NCBI RefSeq assembly: GCF_037902255.1
Contig: NZ_CP147990.1
Span: 2,250,001 to 2,282,000, forward strand
Length of the DNA: 32,000 nt
DNA from: Candidatus Electrothrix sp. GW3-4
GTDB lineage: Bacteria; Desulfobacterota; Desulfobulbia; Desulfobulbales; Desulfobulbaceae
Direction of reading: 5' to 3'
Positions 20,413 to 27,881 of the stretch are shown here, one piece after another. A model generated the notes under the pieces. It saw only the letters and a program-made list of their open reading frames with translations. It was not told the origin of the DNA and did no database searches. The stretch's first letter is position 1. Every line of letters starts with the position of its first letter. A program made the translations under genes and the position numbers.

Positions 20413-21048
20413 ATGAAGAATCTCTTTTTTTCTCTATACATCGTTTGCACCTACCTTCTTACTGCCCTGTGCGTACCAGCCGTGACCCATGCGGAAGAAG
20501 TAGCTGGAACAAATATTGACTGCCCGGACGGTGTCTACAAAGGCACCTTTGACGTGACCTTTATCAAGACTGACCTCGGACCGATCAGGAACAGCATTGA
20601 TGACCTGCTCTTTTTCTATGGCGTAGAGCCCAAAAATCCCTCACAGGGCAATGATAAGATCCAGCTAAAAAGCCTGATGATCTGTTCCGCTGGTGGCGAG
20701 GAGATCAGCACAGCCACCAGACATATCGGCAGCTACACCTTTCTCAATAAGCAATGCAAGATCACTTTAAACGGTAGAGGACAGATCAAGGAGAGGAATC
20801 TTGTTGAGCAAGGGGATGCAAGACTTTCCTGCAAGGACAAGTCTGTTTATCAAGGCGACTACTCCATAACAGCGACCAACCTCTTAGACGCTGGAGAGAA
20901 CCAGGGCACAGGATCAGGGCAGCAGGGGGCCGGGGCAGAGGATACCGGCTCTTCCTCTTCGAGCAAGAGCTGGAATGGTCTGATCACAGAACCTGAACAA
21001 GACAAAAAAGAAACAGGACAGAACCCACTGATCTCGCCCAAACTATAA
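20413..21048 (+). CDS. Hypothetical secreted protein with a Gly/Ser/Gln-rich tail
   Basis: Signal peptide MKNLFFSLYIVCTYLLTALCVPAVTHA. No family recognised. Sits immediately upstream of hsdM. Confidence 0.5.
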   Translation: MKNLFFSLYIVCTYLLTALCVPAVTHAEEVAGTNIDCPDGVYKGTFDVTFIKTDLGPIRNSIDDLLFFYGVEPKNPSQGNDKIQLKSLMICSAGGEEISTATRHIGSYTFLNKQCKITLNGRGQIKERNLVEQGDARLSCKDKSVYQGDYSITATNLLDAGENQGTGSGQQGAGAEDTGSSSSSKSWNGLITEPEQDKKETGQNPLISPKL

Positions 21049-21122: not shown

Positions 21123-22652
21123 ATGATCACCGGAGAACTTAAATCCAAGGTGGACAGCATCTGGGACACCATGTGGTCTGGCGGCATATCCAACCCGCTC
21201 ACAGTTATTGAGCAGCTGACCTACCTGCTCTTTATCAAGCGGCTCGACGAGCTGCACATCTTGGCTGAGCACAAGGCCAACCGCCTGGATAAGCCCATTG
21301 AACAACCGATCTTCAGCAAGGATCAGGAGCAACTACGTTGGTCCCGTTTTAAGGAAACAGCGCCTGAGCAGATGTTCCTTACGGTCAAGGATGAAGTTTT
21401 TCCCTTTATCAAGACCCTGGGCAACGGAGAGACCAGCGCAGAGGAGAAAGAAAACCGTCAGGAAGAATCGCCAAGTCACCTCGTTCAGGTTGCTGAAAGC
21501 GATGTTGCGTATAAACATGCGTATCAAGAGGAGAGCGTGGCAGAGGAGGACAAGACAGAGAAAGAGGTCTGGAAAAAAGACTCCACAGACTCCACCTATG
21601 CCCATCATATGCGGGATGCCCTGTTCATGATCCCCACCCCACGGGTGCTGGCCAATGTGGTGGATCAGCTGGCAGGCATTGAGATGGCAGATACCGACAC
21701 CAAGGGTGATCTTTACGAGTACATGCTGGGCAAGATTGCCTCGGCAGGCCAGAACGGCCAGTTCCGCACCCCGCGCCACATCATCCGCCTGATGGTGGAC
21801 ATGTGCGCGCCCACGCCCAGGGATCTGATCTGCGATCCGGCCTGCGGTACAGCGGGTTTCCTGATTGCGGCCTCAGAATATCTCCAGCAGCACCACAGCA
21901 GCGAGATCTATCAGAGCGAGGCGAGCCGCCGCCGCTTTAATCAGCTGGATGAGGAGAAGTACTCCCTGCTCCTGGCCAATCCGCCCTTTGCAGGCAGTCT
22001 GGATTACGAGTCCATTGCCAAGGATCTGCAACAGGTGGTCAAGACCAAGAAGACCGAGCTGCTCTTTCTGGCCCTGTTTCTCCGTCTGCTGCGGACCGGC
22101 GGTCGAGCTGCGGTCATTGTCCCGGACGGGGTTCTGTTCGGATCAAGCAAGGCCCATAAGACGTTGCGCAAGATCTTGGTGGAGGAGCAGAAGCTGGACG
22201 CGATCATCTCCATGCCCTCGGGGGTGTTCAAGCCCTATGCCGGGGTGTCCACGACCATCCTCTTTTTCACCAAGACCAACTCTGGGGGCACGGATCAGGT
22301 TTGGTTTTACGACATGCGCTCGGATGGCTTTTCTTTGGATGATAAACGGAGCCCGCAACCGGACAAGAGCAATCTGCCGGATATCCTCGCTCGCTGGCAG
22401 GATTTTCAGGCAGGGTGTACGGCTGAGGCAAAACGCAAGCGTACTGAGCAGAGCTTTCTGGTGCCCAAGGAAGAGATTGCTGGTAATGATTATGATCTGT
22501 CCATCAACCGTTATAAGGAAGTGGTCTACGAGGCCGTGGAATATGATCCGCCGGGGGTTATTCTGGGGCGGTTGGCTGCGCTGGAGCAGGAGATTGCGGC
22601 TGGGCGGGTTGCGCTGGAGGGGTTGTTGGGAGAAAAGGCTATACACGCGTAG
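21123..22652 (+). CDS. hsdM: Type I restriction-modification system methyltransferase subunit HsdM (atypical: acidic insertion, and motif II/III segment apparently missing)
   Basis: HsdM_N-type N-terminus (LKSKVDSIWDTMWSGGISNPLTVIEQLTYLLFIKRLD). GQFRTPRHII, motif I DPACGTAGFL, motif IV NPPFAG, GRAAVIVPDGVLFGS, and C-terminal YDLSINRYKE. Confidence 0.88.
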   Translation: MITGELKSKVDSIWDTMWSGGISNPLTVIEQLTYLLFIKRLDELHILAEHKANRLDKPIEQPIFSKDQEQLRWSRFKETAPEQMFLTVKDEVFPFIKTLGNGETSAEEKENRQEESPSHLVQVAESDVAYKHAYQEESVAEEDKTEKEVWKKDSTDSTYAHHMRDALFMIPTPRVLANVVDQLAGIEMADTDTKGDLYEYMLGKIASAGQNGQFRTPRHIIRLMVDMCAPTPRDLICDPACGTAGFLIAASEYLQQHHSSEIYQSEASRRRFNQLDEEKYSLLLANPPFAGSLDYESIAKDLQQVVKTKKTELLFLALFLRLLRTGGRAAVIVPDGVLFGSSKAHKTLRKILVEEQKLDAIISMPSGVFKPYAGVSTTILFFTKTNSGGTDQVWFYDMRSDGFSLDDKRSPQPDKSNLPDILARWQDFQAGCTAEAKRKRTEQSFLVPKEEIAGNDYDLSINRYKEVVYEAVEYDPPGVILGRLAALEQEIAAGRVALEGLLGEKAIHA

Positions 22653-22673
22653 CCAATTCATCGGGTTCATCTG

Positions 22674-22704
22674 GTTCCCAAGCTCCGGCTTGGGAACTGT
22701 TTTA
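22674..22704 (+). terminator. Hairpin plus short T-tract after hsdM (terminator-like)
   Basis: GTTCCCAAGC-tccg-GCTTGGGAAC is a perfect 10-bp stem, followed by TGTTTTA. Confidence 0.5.
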
Positions 22705-22788
22705 CCTGAAGCTCTGCTTCATGTCTCGAAGTTGGAGTTTCTGTATTAAGGGTACCCAAGCAGAGCTTGGGCACCAGGACGAAAAGGA

Positions 22789-23020
22789 GACGTTTGTTTC
22801 TTGCGAGAGGTCTTTCTTTTGTAAAGAGAGGCTCTGCTCTTCTTGCGAGAGGCTCTACTCTTCTTGCGAGAGGTTCTACTCTTTTAAAGAGAGGTGTCGC
22901 TCTTTTTTCGAGAAGCTGCTCGTTTGATAAAAGCGGTTCTTCCTCTCAAGAGAGGAGAGGTTCTTGTTTAACGAGGAGCCGTGCTGTTGTTACGAGGAAG
23001 CTGTACTGCAAAGAATGTAT
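22789..23020. repeat. Degenerate tandem array, 11 units with a 21-bp period, consensus GCTCTACTCTTCTTGCGAGAG
   Basis: Read directly. Unit boundaries fall at 22789, 22810, 22831, 22852, 22873, 22894, 22915, 22936, 22960, 22979 and 23000. Units at 22831 and 22852 are 20/21 identical. The array degrades toward the 3' side. Confidence 0.9.
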
Positions 23021-23066
23021 CGCCTGTTGCGGACAAGACAGGGGCATTGAGCTTTTCGCTCTTGCT

Positions 23067-23168
23067 GCCCAGCGTTAAAACGCTGGGCTATTGGCGGGCT
23101 GTCCCTCCGGGACGCTTTTACCGCCCCGGAGGGGCCGAACGATAATAGCCCAATGTTTTAACATTGGG
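23067..23168. repeat. REPIN-like nested imperfect palindrome (two inverted ~45-bp arms, each carrying its own hairpin)
   Basis: Hairpin A is GCCCAGCG-ttaaaa-CGCTGGGC (23067-23088). The outer stem pairs GGGCTATT (23085-23092) with AATAGCCC (23144-23151). The inner stem pairs CCCTCCGGG (23103-23111) with CCCGGAGGG (23125-23133). Hairpin B is CCCAATGT-ttta-ACATTGGG (23149-23168). Confidence 0.8.
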
Positions 23169-23183
23169 TGGAATCTGGCGCGG

Positions 23184-23207
23184 AAAAACTCTACGCACTG
23201 CGTAGAG
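23184..23207 (-). terminator. Minus-strand terminator-like hairpin
   Basis: On the minus strand: CTCTACGC-agt-GCGTAGAG followed by TTTTT (A5 at 23184-23188 on the plus strand). No obvious minus-strand gene feeds into it. Confidence 0.35.
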
Positions 23208-23255: not shown

Positions 23256-24437
23256 GTGAAGGTTGAAATAGTGGGTGAAGGTGGTGGTAGCATTAGAGAT
23301 GCTGAGATGACGTGGGTTGATAAAAAACTTGGCGAGCTTGCAAAAATTTGCACCGGCAAACTCGACGCGAACGCAAGCTCGGAGAATGGCAAATATCCTT
23401 TTTTTACATGCGCACGACAACCTCTGCGAATCAACAGTTACAGCTATGACGGTGAATGCGTACTTGTCGCAGGAAATGGAGATTTAAACGTCAAATATTA
23501 TGAAGGTAAATTCGATGCGTATCAGCGAACCTACATTATTAAGGTCCGCCCGGAGTTAAGAGATTCGCTTTCTCTTGGTTACGTATATCATTTTCTTGAA
23601 ACATATCTTGAGACACTCAGAAAGCAAAGCATTGGTGGGATCATAAAATACATCAAGCTTGGAAATTTAACTAAAGCTCCAATCCCCCTCCCGCCCATAT
23701 CCGAGCAAAAACGCATTGCAAAAATCCTGAATGCAGCAGACGCCCTACGGGCCAAACGCCGAGAAGCCCTCGCCCAACTCGACACCCTCCTGCAATCCAC
23801 CTTCCTGAATATGTTCGGCGATCCGGTCGCCAATCCGATGGGGTGGAAAATGGGGCGTTTGGCAGATATTGTCGAGCGTCTCGATGGTGGCAAAAATGTT
23901 GCCCAATCTGAAACGAAAACTGACTATCGCGTCCTTAAGGTCAGTGCAGTGACATACGGAGTATATCGACCCGAAGAAAGCAAATACCTTCCCGCTGATT
24001 TCAACGTTCCAGAATCCTACATCGTTAAAAGTGGCGATCTGTTGATCAGTCGAGCAAATACCACCGAGCTGATAGGGGCGACGGCTTATGTCTGGGAAAC
24101 ACCGGAAAGAATCGCACTTCCCGATAAAATCTGGAAGTTCATCTGGAAAAATGATGCCCAAATCGAACCGTTGTTTATTTATCATCTGTCTCAACATATC
24201 GAGTTCCGCCGCATCCTTGCTAGCCGTGCCTCGGGAACTAGCGGTTCCATGAAGAATATCGCGAAATCAAAGCTTCTTAGCTTGCCAGTTCCCCTCCCAC
24301 CCCTCCCTCTCCAACACCGCTTCGCCACCATAGTAAAATCCGTAGAACAACAAAAGTCCCGGATGAAAACTCACCTGACCGAACTGGACACCCTGTTCGC
24401 AGCCCTCCAACAACGAGCCTTTAACGGAGACCTCTAA
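23256..24437 (+). CDS. hsdS: Type I restriction-modification system specificity subunit HsdS (two TRDs)
   Basis: Central conserved region PLPPISEQKRIAKILNAADALRAKRREALAQLDTLLQSTFLNMFGDP. C-terminal conserved region LPVPLPPLPLQHRFATIVKSVEQQKSRM..LDTLFAALQQRAFNGDL. GTG 23256 has AAGGAG 7 nt upstream; the alternative start ATG 23307 (MTWVDKKLGEL) looks more like a typical HsdS N-terminus. Confidence 0.85.
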   Translation: MKVEIVGEGGGSIRDAEMTWVDKKLGELAKICTGKLDANASSENGKYPFFTCARQPLRINSYSYDGECVLVAGNGDLNVKYYEGKFDAYQRTYIIKVRPELRDSLSLGYVYHFLETYLETLRKQSIGGIIKYIKLGNLTKAPIPLPPISEQKRIAKILNAADALRAKRREALAQLDTLLQSTFLNMFGDPVANPMGWKMGRLADIVERLDGGKNVAQSETKTDYRVLKVSAVTYGVYRPEESKYLPADFNVPESYIVKSGDLLISRANTTELIGATAYVWETPERIALPDKIWKFIWKNDAQIEPLFIYHLSQHIEFRRILASRASGTSGSMKNIAKSKLLSLPVPLPPLPLQHRFATIVKSVEQQKSRMKTHLTELDTLFAALQQRAFNGDL

Positions 24438-24443
24438 TCCACC

Positions 24444-27400
24444 ATGAGCAACTTCGCCTTCCTGCCCACCGAGTTCCGCACCATCGCCGAATCCGCAATC
24501 AAGGCGGAAGGCCACATCATGGGCGACCCGCGTGCTGCCTGCTTCCATGCCCGCTTCACCCTGGAAGCCATTGTCCACTGGCTCTACCGCCACGACAGCA
24601 GCCTCCACCAACCCTATGCCCGCAACCTGGGTGCCCTGCTTTATGAAGCCACCTTTCAGGATCTCCTGCCCCAGCCCGTGTTGCACAAGGCCCAGCTGAT
24701 CCACAAGCTCGGTAATGCAGCTGTCCATAACACCCGGTCCGTGCCCAGCAGCGACGCGCTTCAGGCGGTCAAAGACCTCCACCATTTCTGCCACTGGCTG
24801 GTGCGGACCTACAGTCCTTCTGCTGTCCTGAAAACATCGGGTTGGCGTGATGATCTGGTGTTGCCAGCCCTGGACAGCAAAGCCGTGGTGCCGCGCAAGG
24901 AGCTGGAAACCCTGGAGAGCCGGTTAGCGGCCCAGAACGAAAAGAGCCTCAAGCAACAGCAGGAACGGGATGTCCTAGATGCGGAAATTCAGGCCCTGCG
25001 GGAACAGCTCACAGCTCTCCGGGTCCAGTCTGAGCAGCAGATTGATCCCCATGACTACTCTGAGGCCGAGACCCGGCACGCCCTGATCGACGTGGACCTG
25101 CACCGGGCTGGCTGGCCCCTGGCTGATCCCCAGGATCGGGAATACAAGGTCAGCAATATGCCCACTTCCACCAGCACCAGCACCGGTATCGGTATCGGCA
25201 TTGGCTATGTCGATTATGTGCTCTGGGGTGATGACGGCAGGCCCCTGGCCGTGGTGGAGGCGAAAAAGAGCACCGCAGATCCCCAAGCAGGTCAGCAGCA
25301 GGCCAAGCTCTATGCGGACTGCCTGGAGCAGATGCATAGTCAACGCCCGCTCATCTTCTACACCAACGGCTACAGCACTTGGCTCTGGGACGATACCAGC
25401 TATCCGCCCCGGCAGGTGGCTGGTTTCTACTCCAAGGACGAGCTCACCCGCCTGATTCTTCGCCGCAACCGTTGCACACCCCTGAAGCAGCTCAAGGTCA
25501 AGGAGGCAATCGCGGGCCGCTATTACCAAATCCGGGCCATCCGTAGTATTGCGGACCAATTTACCGAGGCCCGCCGCAAGGCCCTGCTGGTCATGGCCAC
25601 GGGAACCGGTAAGACCCGAACCGCTATCGCCTTGGTGGATATCCTCCAACGGGCCGGGTGGGTGAAGCGGGCCCTGTTTCTTGCGGATCGGATCTCCCTG
25701 GTCAGGCAGGCCTGCAATGCCTTTAAGGAGCATCTGCCCGAATCCAGCCCGGTGAATCTGGTTACGGAAAAGGGCACTGAGGGCCGGGTGGCGGTCTGCA
25801 CTTACCCCACCATGATGGGTCTGATAAATAAAACCATGAACGAGGACAAGGGGACAGCGGCCCGCCAGTCTTGCCAGTCCTGTTTTGGAGTGGGCCATTT
25901 TGACCTGATCATCATTGACGAGGCCCACCGCTCCGTGTACCGGAAATACGGGGCCATCTTCCGTTATTTCGATGCCCTGCTGGTCGGTCTGACCGCCACC
26001 CCCCGTGAAGAAGTGGACAAGAACACCTATGACCTCTTTGAGCTGGAACAGGGCGTGCCCACCGATGCCTATGAGCTGGCCGAGGGCGTTAAGGACGGCT
26101 TCCTGGTGCCGCCCCGGGTGGCCCAGGTGGATATGCGCTTTCCCGGCCAGGGTATTGATTATGATCTGCTCAGTGCCGAGGAACAGGCCCAATGGGAAGA
26201 ACTGGACTGGGGTGATGATGGGGAGCCGGATCGCTTCCCGGACAAGGTCAATGCTGCGGCCATCAATAACTGGCTCTTTAACCAAGACACAGTGGACAAG
26301 GTGCTCAAGTATCTTATGGAGCATGGACATCGGGTGGAAGGCGGGGACCGGCTGGCCAAGACCATCATCTTTGCCCGTAACCACCAGCACGCTGCCTTTA
26401 TTGAGGAACGTTTTAATGCCAATTATCGAAAGTATGCTGGCCATTTTGCTCGGGTGATTGATAATACCATCAAGCATGCCCAGAACCTGATTGAGGAATT
26501 TGAGCAACAGGATAAGGCACCCCATATCGCCATCTCCGTGGACATGCTGGACACCGGCATTGATGTGCCTGCGGTGGCCAATCTGGTCTTTTTTAAACCG
26601 GTCTTTTCCAAGATCAAATTCTGGCAGATGATCGGACGCGGCACCCGACCCTGCCCGGATCTCTTTGGTCCTGGTGAGGATAAGCAGGACTTTCGGGTCT
26701 TTGACTTCTGCTTTAATTTTGATTTTTTTCAGGAAAACCCAGAGGGCATCAATGCCGGGGATACTGCCCCGCTGGGTACTCGCCTTTTTCAGGCACGGGT
26801 TCAGTTGCTCAGTCATATTCAGTCCCGCCCTGAAACCGATGCAGATGCTCAGCTGGCAACGAGCCTGACAGATGGCCTGCACCGGGAGGTCAAGGCCATG
26901 CACCGGGATAACTTCATTGTCCGCATGCATAGGCAGGCAGTGGAGCAGTTTCAGGAGCGCACAGCCTGGGACCGGCTCAGCGAGAGCGATTGTATGACCC
27001 TGCAACGGGAGGTGGCAGGCCTGCCCAGCGAGCTTGCCAGCGACAATATCCGGTCCCGGCTCTTTGACCTCACGGCCCTGCGTATGCAGCTGGCCCTGAT
27101 CGAGGGCGGCAGCTTTGAGCGTCAGCGCAGGCGGGTCATGGAGATTGCCCAGCTGCTGGAAGAGAAACGGGCTGTCCCGGCAGTAGCGGTCCAGCTGGCC
27201 TATCTTGCTAGGGTCCAGGAAGACGGCTTCTGGCAAGGGATGACTCTGGCCGAGCTGGAGGATCTCCGCCTTCGCTTCCGGGAGCTGGTGCCCTTGCTGG
27301 ACAAGCAGGAGCGCAATTTGGTGTACACGGATTTTCAGGACGAGGTTCTGGGGGTGCGGGAAGAGGAGCCGGTCTATATCCCCAGGATGACCGGGGCCCA

Positions 27401-27881
27401 GTATGAAAAAAAGGTCACGGACTATTTGCGCTGCCATACAAACCAGCTGGTCATCCAACGCCTCAAGGCCAATGAACCCCTCACCAGCCTGGACCTCCAG
27501 GGCCTGGAAAGCGTACTCACCGAGCTCGGGGCAGAGGAAGGCGAAACCCTGCTTGCTGACCTGCTGTCCCGGAGCAAGGCCCCCTCGCTGCCCCATTTTA
27601 TCCGCTCCCTGGTGGGCCTGGATCGAACCGCTGCCAAGGCTGCCTTTGCCCAGTTCCTCAACGACCGCAGCCTGACAGCTCCGCAGATCCGTTTTATCGA
27701 GCTGATCATTGACCAACTCACGGCACGGGGCGTGATGAATGCCGAGGCCCTCTACCAGCCCCCGTTCAGCAACCTCCATTCCGGTGGACCGGAAGTACTC
27801 TTTTCAGGTAAGGAAAATATCATTGAGGGGGTCTTTACCACTCTGGAATCTCTGGCACCCCGGATCCAAGAGGTTGGCTGA
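24444..27881 (+). CDS. hsdR: Type I restriction enzyme R subunit HsdR (DUF4145 N-domain, PD-(D/E)xK nuclease, SF2 helicase, EcoEI-type C-terminal domain)
   Basis: The nuclease core is GYVDYVLWGDDGRPLAVVEAKK. Helicase motifs are MATGTGKT, DEAH (IIIDEAHR), LTATP and QMIGRGTR. The N-terminal ~125 aa resemble DUF4145. Confidence 0.9.
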   Translation: MSNFAFLPTEFRTIAESAIKAEGHIMGDPRAACFHARFTLEAIVHWLYRHDSSLHQPYARNLGALLYEATFQDLLPQPVLHKAQLIHKLGNAAVHNTRSVPSSDALQAVKDLHHFCHWLVRTYSPSAVLKTSGWRDDLVLPALDSKAVVPRKELETLESRLAAQNEKSLKQQQERDVLDAEIQALREQLTALRVQSEQQIDPHDYSEAETRHALIDVDLHRAGWPLADPQDREYKVSNMPTSTSTSTGIGIGIGYVDYVLWGDDGRPLAVVEAKKSTADPQAGQQQAKLYADCLEQMHSQRPLIFYTNGYSTWLWDDTSYPPRQVAGFYSKDELTRLILRRNRCTPLKQLKVKEAIAGRYYQIRAIRSIADQFTEARRKALLVMATGTGKTRTAIALVDILQRAGWVKRALFLADRISLVRQACNAFKEHLPESSPVNLVTEKGTEGRVAVCTYPTMMGLINKTMNEDKGTAARQSCQSCFGVGHFDLIIIDEAHRSVYRKYGAIFRYFDALLVGLTATPREEVDKNTYDLFELEQGVPTDAYELAEGVKDGFLVPPRVAQVDMRFPGQGIDYDLLSAEEQAQWEELDWGDDGEPDRFPDKVNAAAINNWLFNQDTVDKVLKYLMEHGHRVEGGDRLAKTIIFARNHQHAAFIEERFNANYRKYAGHFARVIDNTIKHAQNLIEEFEQQDKAPHIAISVDMLDTGIDVPAVANLVFFKPVFSKIKFWQMIGRGTRPCPDLFGPGEDKQDFRVFDFCFNFDFFQENPEGINAGDTAPLGTRLFQARVQLLSHIQSRPETDADAQLATSLTDGLHREVKAMHRDNFIVRMHRQAVEQFQERTAWDRLSESDCMTLQREVAGLPSELASDNIRSRLFDLTALRMQLALIEGGSFERQRRRVMEIAQLLEEKRAVPAVAVQLAYLARVQEDGFWQGMTLAELEDLRLRFRELVPLLDKQERNLVYTDFQDEVLGVREEEPVYIPRMTGAQYEKKVTDYLRCHTNQLVIQRLKANEPLTSLDLQGLESVLTELGAEEGETLLADLLSRSKAPSLPHFIRSLVGLDRTAAKAAFAQFLNDRSLTAPQIRFIELIIDQLTARGVMNAEALYQPPFSNLHSGGPEVLFSGKENIIEGVFTTLESLAPRIQEVG

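Follow-up and report, generated by a model that had tools for sequence, protein, structure and literature searches.

A 21-bp-period tandem array between hsdM and hsdS of Candidatus Electrothrix as a probable remnant of a heptad-repeat coding cassette

Accessory cargo genes are known inside type I restriction-modification (R-M) operons, an example being prrC in the prr locus of Escherichia coli. The tandem array that is the subject of this work lies in such an operon, between hsdM and hsdS, within a 32,000-nucleotide stretch of the genome of Candidatus Electrothrix sp. GW3-4 (referred to as the window here). It resembles prrC, as well as the DUF1456 and YhcG/DUF1016 cargo of sister operons, in that hsd genes of the same strand border it on both sides and it occurs in one lineage only, the orthologous operons holding other cargo or nothing at all, which is the pattern expected of the occupant of a cargo slot. 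It is unlike this cargo in being a low-complexity heptad-repeat open reading frame (ORF) from an undescribed family, probably in decay, in which no defense or toxin domain is recognizable. The array also compares with bacterial tandem-repeat (minisatellite-like) coding regions: its period is a multiple of 3, the number of units differs between copies (7, 20, and 10), and adjacent units can be near-identical, as expected from recent duplication. Unlike tandem-repeat proteins, however, the protein of this cassette would be very short and highly basic, with no recognizable nonrepeat domain, and is known from three copies. The spacer that contains the array is a mosaic of small palindromic modules that are reordered between genes, like the REP/BIME elements of E. 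coli and the BOX elements of pneumococcus, but in contrast to these systems the tandem array is not part of the modules and is present without them in two homologous loci. Lastly, the module ahead of hsdS resembles the Acido-Lenti-1 RNA motif (Rfam RF01687; Weinberg et al. 2010, PMC2864571), since it consists of two copies of a two-hairpin motif whose first hairpin is near-identical to that of bona fide members in Acidobacteria and the PVC group. It departs from described members in that both copies score below the gathering threshold, that the motif is new to the host phylum, Desulfobacterota, and that its two copies lie side by side in convergent orientation, fixed beside hsdS; moreover, this likeness concerns the flank and not the array.

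The spacer between hsdM and hsdS measures 603 nucleotides (nt), and the array starts 138 nt past the hsdM stop codon and ends 235 nt before the hsdS start codon (Table 1). Four parts make up the mosaic, namely, a long hairpin of 107 nt (the left module), the array with its tail, a palindromic module of 104 nt (the right module), and a small palindrome. HsdM is 77% identical to its counterpart in Ca. Electrothrix communis and 75% identical to that of E. laxa, and HsdS shares the N-terminal motif KxExVGxxGGG with the HsdS of a related operon (L132). The N-terminal DUF4145 of HsdR is likewise found on the HsdR orthologues of related operons. The remaining neighbors of the array in the window encode PFOR, a permease, and a 211-amino-acid (aa) protein of no known family. 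The latter (20413-21048) lies directly upstream of hsdM, has a signal-peptide-like N terminus, finds no match in Pfam, NCBIfam, PADLOC, or PHROGs, and is 45% identical to a 205-aa protein whose gene overlaps the hsdM start in another of these operons (L130, 1054-1671). This protein may represent an additional, conserved member of hsd operons of this type.

Table 1. Positions of the operon genes, the repeat cassette, and the palindromic modules in the window
Feature	Position	Strand	Basis or description
hsdM, type I methyltransferase subunit	21123..22652	+	Pfam HsdM_N and N6_Mtase
Left palindromic module	22671..22777	+	107-nt long hairpin, two copies of CCCAAGC-N3/4-GCTTGGG; inverted repeats, fold, terminator scan
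ORF	22767..23078	+	103 codons from TTG 22767, 94 from TTG 22794; only stop-free frame across the array
Putative cassette segment (leader with KRRR codons, heptad array, tail)	22782..23039	+	Homologous to L126 and L128
Seven regular 21-nt (7-codon) units	22791..22937	+	RLFLARG LSFVKRG SALLARG STLLARG STLLKRG VALFSRS CSFDKSG
Irregular/degenerate units	22938..23021	+	24 nt SSSQERRG, 18 nt SCLTRS, 21 nt RAVVTRK, 21 nt LYCKECI; orthologous to the tails of L126 and L128
Short filler	23040..23066	+	Between cassette and right module
Right palindromic module	23067..23170	.	Convergent pair of 47-nt Acido-Lenti-1-like elements, 23068-23114 (+) and 23122-23168 (-)
Small palindrome (palD) CTCTACGCAcTGCGTAGAG	23189..23207	.	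Inverted-repeat and terminator scans
hsdS, specificity subunit	23256..24437	+	Pfam Methylase_S
hsdR, restriction subunit, N-terminal DUF4145	24444..27881	+	Pfam

A sequence-only reading of the window had listed 11 consecutive units at 22789-23020, and the sequence does partition exactly into them, with seven units of 21 nt followed by units of 24, 19, 21, and 21 nt. The array is a real tandem repeat and represents extra material between hsdM and hsdS. TRF reports a period of 21 at 22826-22883 (94% matches, score 102) as well as a period-63 super-repeat at 22798-22917 (score 161), a repeat search finds seven copies in register that reach to 22990, and the unit consensus gives two matches at three or fewer mismatches, versus none expected from 100 shuffles. 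As that reading had also stated, the units starting at 22831 and 22852 are 20/21 identical (one mismatch in 21 positions); in the codon register, these near-identical units (22833-22853 and 22854-22874) indicate a probable recent local duplication. When the sequence is read in this register, the irregular units become 24 nt (22938-22961) and 18 nt (22962-22979), so that the array keeps its phase over 77 codons, from 22791 to 23021. The claim that identity decays toward 23020 was right in that degenerate units are present at the 3' end, but these units have not decayed in place, because the same 8-codon unit, 6-codon unit, and tail recur in two homologues elsewhere.

Homologues were sought by scanning with a degenerate DNA pattern of the whole unit and then with a profile of two translated ORFs. 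The pattern had no match in the GTDB genomes and none in viral contigs, while the JGI metagenomes yielded two matches, of which one was true (contig L126) and the other (L127) was discarded as a chance match. The profile built from the translated ORFs of the window and L126 then retrieved one further protein, P0121, encoded on contig L128. Window, L126, and L128 align without gaps over 258 columns, which comprise the leader GAAAAGGAGACGTT (encoding KRRR), the heptads, the 8-codon unit, the 6-codon unit, and the tail; the cassette occupies positions 863-1429 on the minus strand of L126 and, on L128, an ORF at 503-994. With BLASTN, the window segment is 88% identical to L126 over 75 nt. The short filler that follows the cassette in the window (Table 1) has no homologous sequence in L126, in L128, or among the orthologous hsd operons. 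Regular units number ∼7 in the window, ∼20 in L126, where a super-period of 105 nt is seen, and ∼10 in L128.

Neither homologue lies in an hsd operon. The array of L126 is flanked by a cable-bacteria-specific gene for a 268-aa protein and by a PIN toxin module, and that of L128, as judged by eye from the sequence, lies beside the 3' end of a tRNA. Nine loci orthologous to the L126 site carry toxin-antitoxin or PD-(D/E)XK cargo and no array, and for this reason the L126 copy is also a sporadic insertion in a variable hotspot. This hotspot (L126 and L133-L141) extends between the conserved 268-aa gene and hisI/hisG, and its small cargo differs per lineage, including PIN, ParE, DUF4160/DUF2442, HTH, and PD-(D/E)XK/Rpn-like genes, with the heptad cassette in L126. 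P0121 has an ATG start codon, a Shine-Dalgarno-like site, and, by eye, a signal-peptide-like N terminus, and its AlphaFold2 model shows no confident fold (pLDDT 43). The cassette ORFs belong to no family in Pfam, NCBIfam, PADLOC, or PHROGs. A profile search of 1.8 billion representatives gave 78 matches besides P0121, and the best-scoring ones that we inspected were unrelated ORFs with 7-residue repeats. In the literature on repeats of cable bacteria, only IS elements are discussed.

We then compared the hsdM-hsdS junctions of orthologous operons; of the seven related ones examined, none contains the array. Three of them (L004 from E. laxa, L005, and L132) contain only palindromic modules in spacers of 230 to 280 nt. 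The E. communis operon (L003) has a DUF1456 gene with the left module on one side and the right module on the other, and two others (L129 and L130) hold a YhcG/DUF1016-like gene together with DUF1456 in the slot. In the more distant L131, hsdM overlaps hsdS and the cargo follows hsdS. On this comparison, the spacer is best read as a cargo slot punctuated by conserved palindromes, with the array as its putative lineage-specific occupant.

The left, right, and small palindromes recur at 88 to 95% identity in an order that varies among hsd operons, and, among the window and the Electrothrix loci that we fetched, they were seen in hsd operons only. The first copy of the inverted repeat in the left module, together with a T-run (22672-22699), looks like the intrinsic terminator of hsdM. 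The two halves of this module could pair either locally or with each other. The module is 90 to 95% conserved in L003 (7748-7851), L130 (5049-5152), and, as one half only, L004 (7568-7627), and is found in part in L129; the gene that it follows differs, being hsdM in the window and DUF1456 in L130. The small palindrome, palD, takes other positions in L004, L132, L129, and L130: it comes after the right module in the window, directly after hsdM in E. laxa (L004, 7532-7558), and on both sides of the right module in L132 (2894-2921). Additionally, an element of ∼80 nt (GGGCGG(A)CC...GGGCAGAyACAyGGGyCTGCCCCTA) has two copies in the spacer of E. communis (L003, 7654-7730 and 8370-8450), where they flank the left module and DUF1456, and one in L005 (7624-7700); similar sequence is visible in L130 (4943-5030), and the window has no copy.

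The right module is 88 to 93% conserved ahead of hsdS in L003, L004, L005, and L132 and half-present in L129 and L130. Its two elements score 33.6 and 30.9 bits against RF01687, below the gathering score of 37, with E values of 2e-6 and 1e-5 in a local search, and both copies contain the two hairpins of the model. The 22-nt palindrome of this module, CCCAGCGTTnnAACGCTGGGCT, is found at no fewer than 120 places in Acidobacteria, Planctomycetota, Verrucomicrobiota, and Bacteroidota. Most of the 20 such loci that we scored are bona fide Acido-Lenti-1 motifs, often arranged as divergent pairs, and none of 120 loci has an hsd homologue near the palindrome. This distribution suggests that the Acido-Lenti-1-like element may be a dispersed palindromic DNA element rather than a small RNA gene, and the motif would now extend to Desulfobacterota.

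To return to the array, its coding origin is indicated by how the three copies vary. Only one frame, that of ORF 22767-23078, is stop-free across the array in all three of them, and the two in-frame TGA codons of L126 are located in the tail, after the array. Among 35 to 37 units, codon position 2 is the most conserved, with an entropy of 0.53 (position 1, 1.20; position 3, 1.04; permutation P = 0.006). The second base of the codon is a near-invariant T for residues 3 and 4 (Leu/Phe/Val/Ile) and a near-invariant C for residue 2 (Ser/Pro/Thr/Ala). Lineage-specific substitutions avoid position 2 (11, 2, and 13 at positions 1, 2, and 3 in L126; 14, 6, and 15 in L128), and units recently duplicated within L126 differ by 13, 3, and 8 substitutions (p = 0.044), although all substitution counts are small, as the family has three members only. 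Pairwise pN/pS was not discriminating, with values of 0.45 to 0.88 in the ORF frame that are not clearly below those of the other frames. Two other frames were considered and rejected. L126 also has an open antisense ORF of 300 codons, but with antisense coding the most variable positions would fall on codon position 2, and this frame has stops in the window and L128. The sense ORF 22721-22927 lies in a frame with 4 to 8 stop-containing codon pairs in the comparisons with homologues. We conclude that the period of 21 would represent heptad repeats (S-S/P-L/F-L/V-K-R-G) of a protein-coding cassette.

This conclusion departs from the sequence-only reading in several respects. According to that reading, the array was non-coding, with ORFs that exist only through the repeat, whereas homologues in two contexts keep the same stop-free frame with position 2 conserved. 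A repeat-protein gene was the outcome that the reading had itself set against its claim, and the evolutionary evidence points to just that. The array was further held to be an unusual, non-coding kind of cargo, but as protein-coding cargo, or a remnant of it, it would be of the normal kind for this slot. The statement that neither ORF has an ATG start is correct for ORF 22767-23078, which begins with TTG, and incorrect for ORF 22721-22927, which does begin with ATG.

The array would best be explained as the repetitive interior, in units of seven codons, of a small accessory ORF cassette that occurs sporadically in cable bacteria (Ca. Electrothrix). The predicted plan of this cassette is a leader, tandem heptads of the form [S/T/C]-[S/P/T]-[L/F]-[L/V/F]-[K/A]-[R/S]-[G/S], an 8-codon unit, a 6-codon unit, and a tail, AVVTR..KEC..CC. 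The differences in unit number are consistent with expansion by slippage or unequal recombination between units. In the window, the cassette would sit in a variable cargo slot bordered by the terminator-like left module after hsdM and by the Acido-Lenti-1-like right module before hsdS. Its copy here would be a remnant past protein-level selection, i.e., passive cargo whose transcription, if any, would come from read-through in the operon.

Whether the array acts in the operon as nucleic acid has to be weighed against this explanation. It could be an RNA of ∼11 small hairpins, one per 21 nt, or a row of phased, protein-bound AGAG-N-CTCT dyads, and in either form it would adjust how transcripts are terminated, processed, or translated between the two hsd genes. 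Every unit can form a hairpin of 5 to 6 bp, 21 bp correspond to two helical turns of DNA, a terminator-like hairpin precedes the array and hsdS follows it, and the 603-nt spacer folds with a z-score of -8.4. However, this strong z-score stems mainly from the flanking palindromic modules, and one hairpin per unit was rejected when pairing reached 77.6% versus 76.2% in shuffled sequences, without covariation and with better pairing (83.3%) in a register slid by +2. The dyad look of the array arises because its codons are mutual reverse complements (TCT/AGA and CTT/AAG). No Rfam family corresponds to the array: the whole window has no match at the gathering score, and an E-value scan of the spacer gives Acido-Lenti-1 on the flank only and chance-level matches over the array. 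Given that neither a hairpin nor a binding site explains the period-3 conservation, that homologous arrays lie outside any hsd operon, and that seven related hsd operons work without one, we consider a non-coding operon element quite unlikely. A tandem repeat in an R-M locus, with a copy number that varies among the three homologous arrays, could also bring to mind a phase-variation repeat, an iteron or centromere array, or a degenerate CRISPR-like array, but these are extremely unlikely. A 21-nt unit, as a multiple of 3 located outside the hsd ORFs, allows no frame switching, and the array region is identical in three assemblies, namely, the window and two Logan metagenome contigs, although the latter are from two runs with adjacent accession numbers and may represent the same strain. 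Neither rep nor par genes are found among the neighbors, as an iteron or centromere array would lead one to expect, and the units run head to tail with no spacers between them, unlike a CRISPR.

A closer contest is whether the copy in the window is still a functional gene. Translation from TTG 22794 would give a very basic (13 R, 5 K), Cys-containing heptad protein of ∼94 residues, which would serve as active cargo of the R-M operon, predicted to be, e.g., a nucleic-acid-binding or envelope protein. This is a minority possibility in our view. It agrees with the intact ORF, with a strong Shine-Dalgarno-like AAGGAG at 22784-22789 that precedes this in-frame TTG by 4 nt, with the C-terminal KEC..CC that is in frame in both the window and P0121, with the start codon, Shine-Dalgarno-like site, and signal-peptide-like N terminus of P0121, and with the real genes that occupy the slot in relatives. 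Nevertheless, the open frame is weak evidence, because a neutral copy stays open ∼20% of the time. The stop codon of the ORF falls within the right module, in the loop of its first palindrome. The AAGGAG corresponds to the inherited KRRR codons, being inside the ORF of L126 and absent in L128. Around 15 upstream codons that are common to L126 and L128 are missing from the window, which offers no ATG, and no promoter-like site is found between the hsdM terminator hairpin and the ORF. The codons are rare in the host genome, with a CAI-like value of 0.49 compared with 0.59 to 0.81 for the genes of the window and 11 of 13 Arg codons being AGA or AGG. Gene calls on the two identical Logan contigs place no gene at ORF 22767-23078. 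Finally, window-specific substitutions fall evenly on the codon positions (13, 13, and 8; in the tail 2, 7, and 5), a pattern that differs from what is seen in the two other lineages (Fisher p = 0.009 and 0.006), and these counts give no support for purifying selection acting on the protein in this lineage.

Because the upstream codons and the ATG are missing, the AAGGAG is inherited, the codons are rare, and the substitutions are even, the window copy is most likely a relic. On the sequence evidence, we thus lean toward the reading of the array as a segment of a heptad-repeat cassette whose copy in the window is a decaying cargo remnant that has presumably lost its function. A bolder proposal is that the cassette is a living, mobile family of small genes, limited to cable bacteria, that colonizes defense and toxin-antitoxin hotspots and encodes secreted or nucleic-acid-binding, basic, Cys-containing heptad proteins of variable length, the hsd copy being expressed and modulating restriction or filling another defense-linked role; we regard this as unlikely.

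Reading the array as a cassette remnant removes an apparent oddity, in that a supposedly non-coding array in a type I R-M operon becomes cargo derived from protein-coding sequence. It also calls for caution with other arrays of 21-bp period, which can be heptad-repeat coding sequences with a palindromic look that comes from complementary codons. The novelty is a rare, unannotated repeat-ORF family, documented here in cable bacteria, and not a new class of element. The comparison of hsd operons from Electrothrix further exposes a slot for cargo that is set off by conserved palindromic modules. The module beside hsdS resembles the orphan Acido-Lenti-1 motif, for which the phylum is new, and may be a more interesting lead than the array.

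The window contains another array, at 2291-2644, which the sequence-only reading had described as unrelated to the one in the hsd operon, and we agree, since the two have only chance words of 7 to 8 nt in common. This array has periods of 21 and 63 bp and consists of copies of GGTGACGnnnnnnTATCCCC in direct and inverted orientation, so that neighboring units form long hairpins. No single frame is open across it, and it has no match in Rfam. The array lies directly after a gene for a 106-aa protein (1966-2286) with a weak match to DUF6987.
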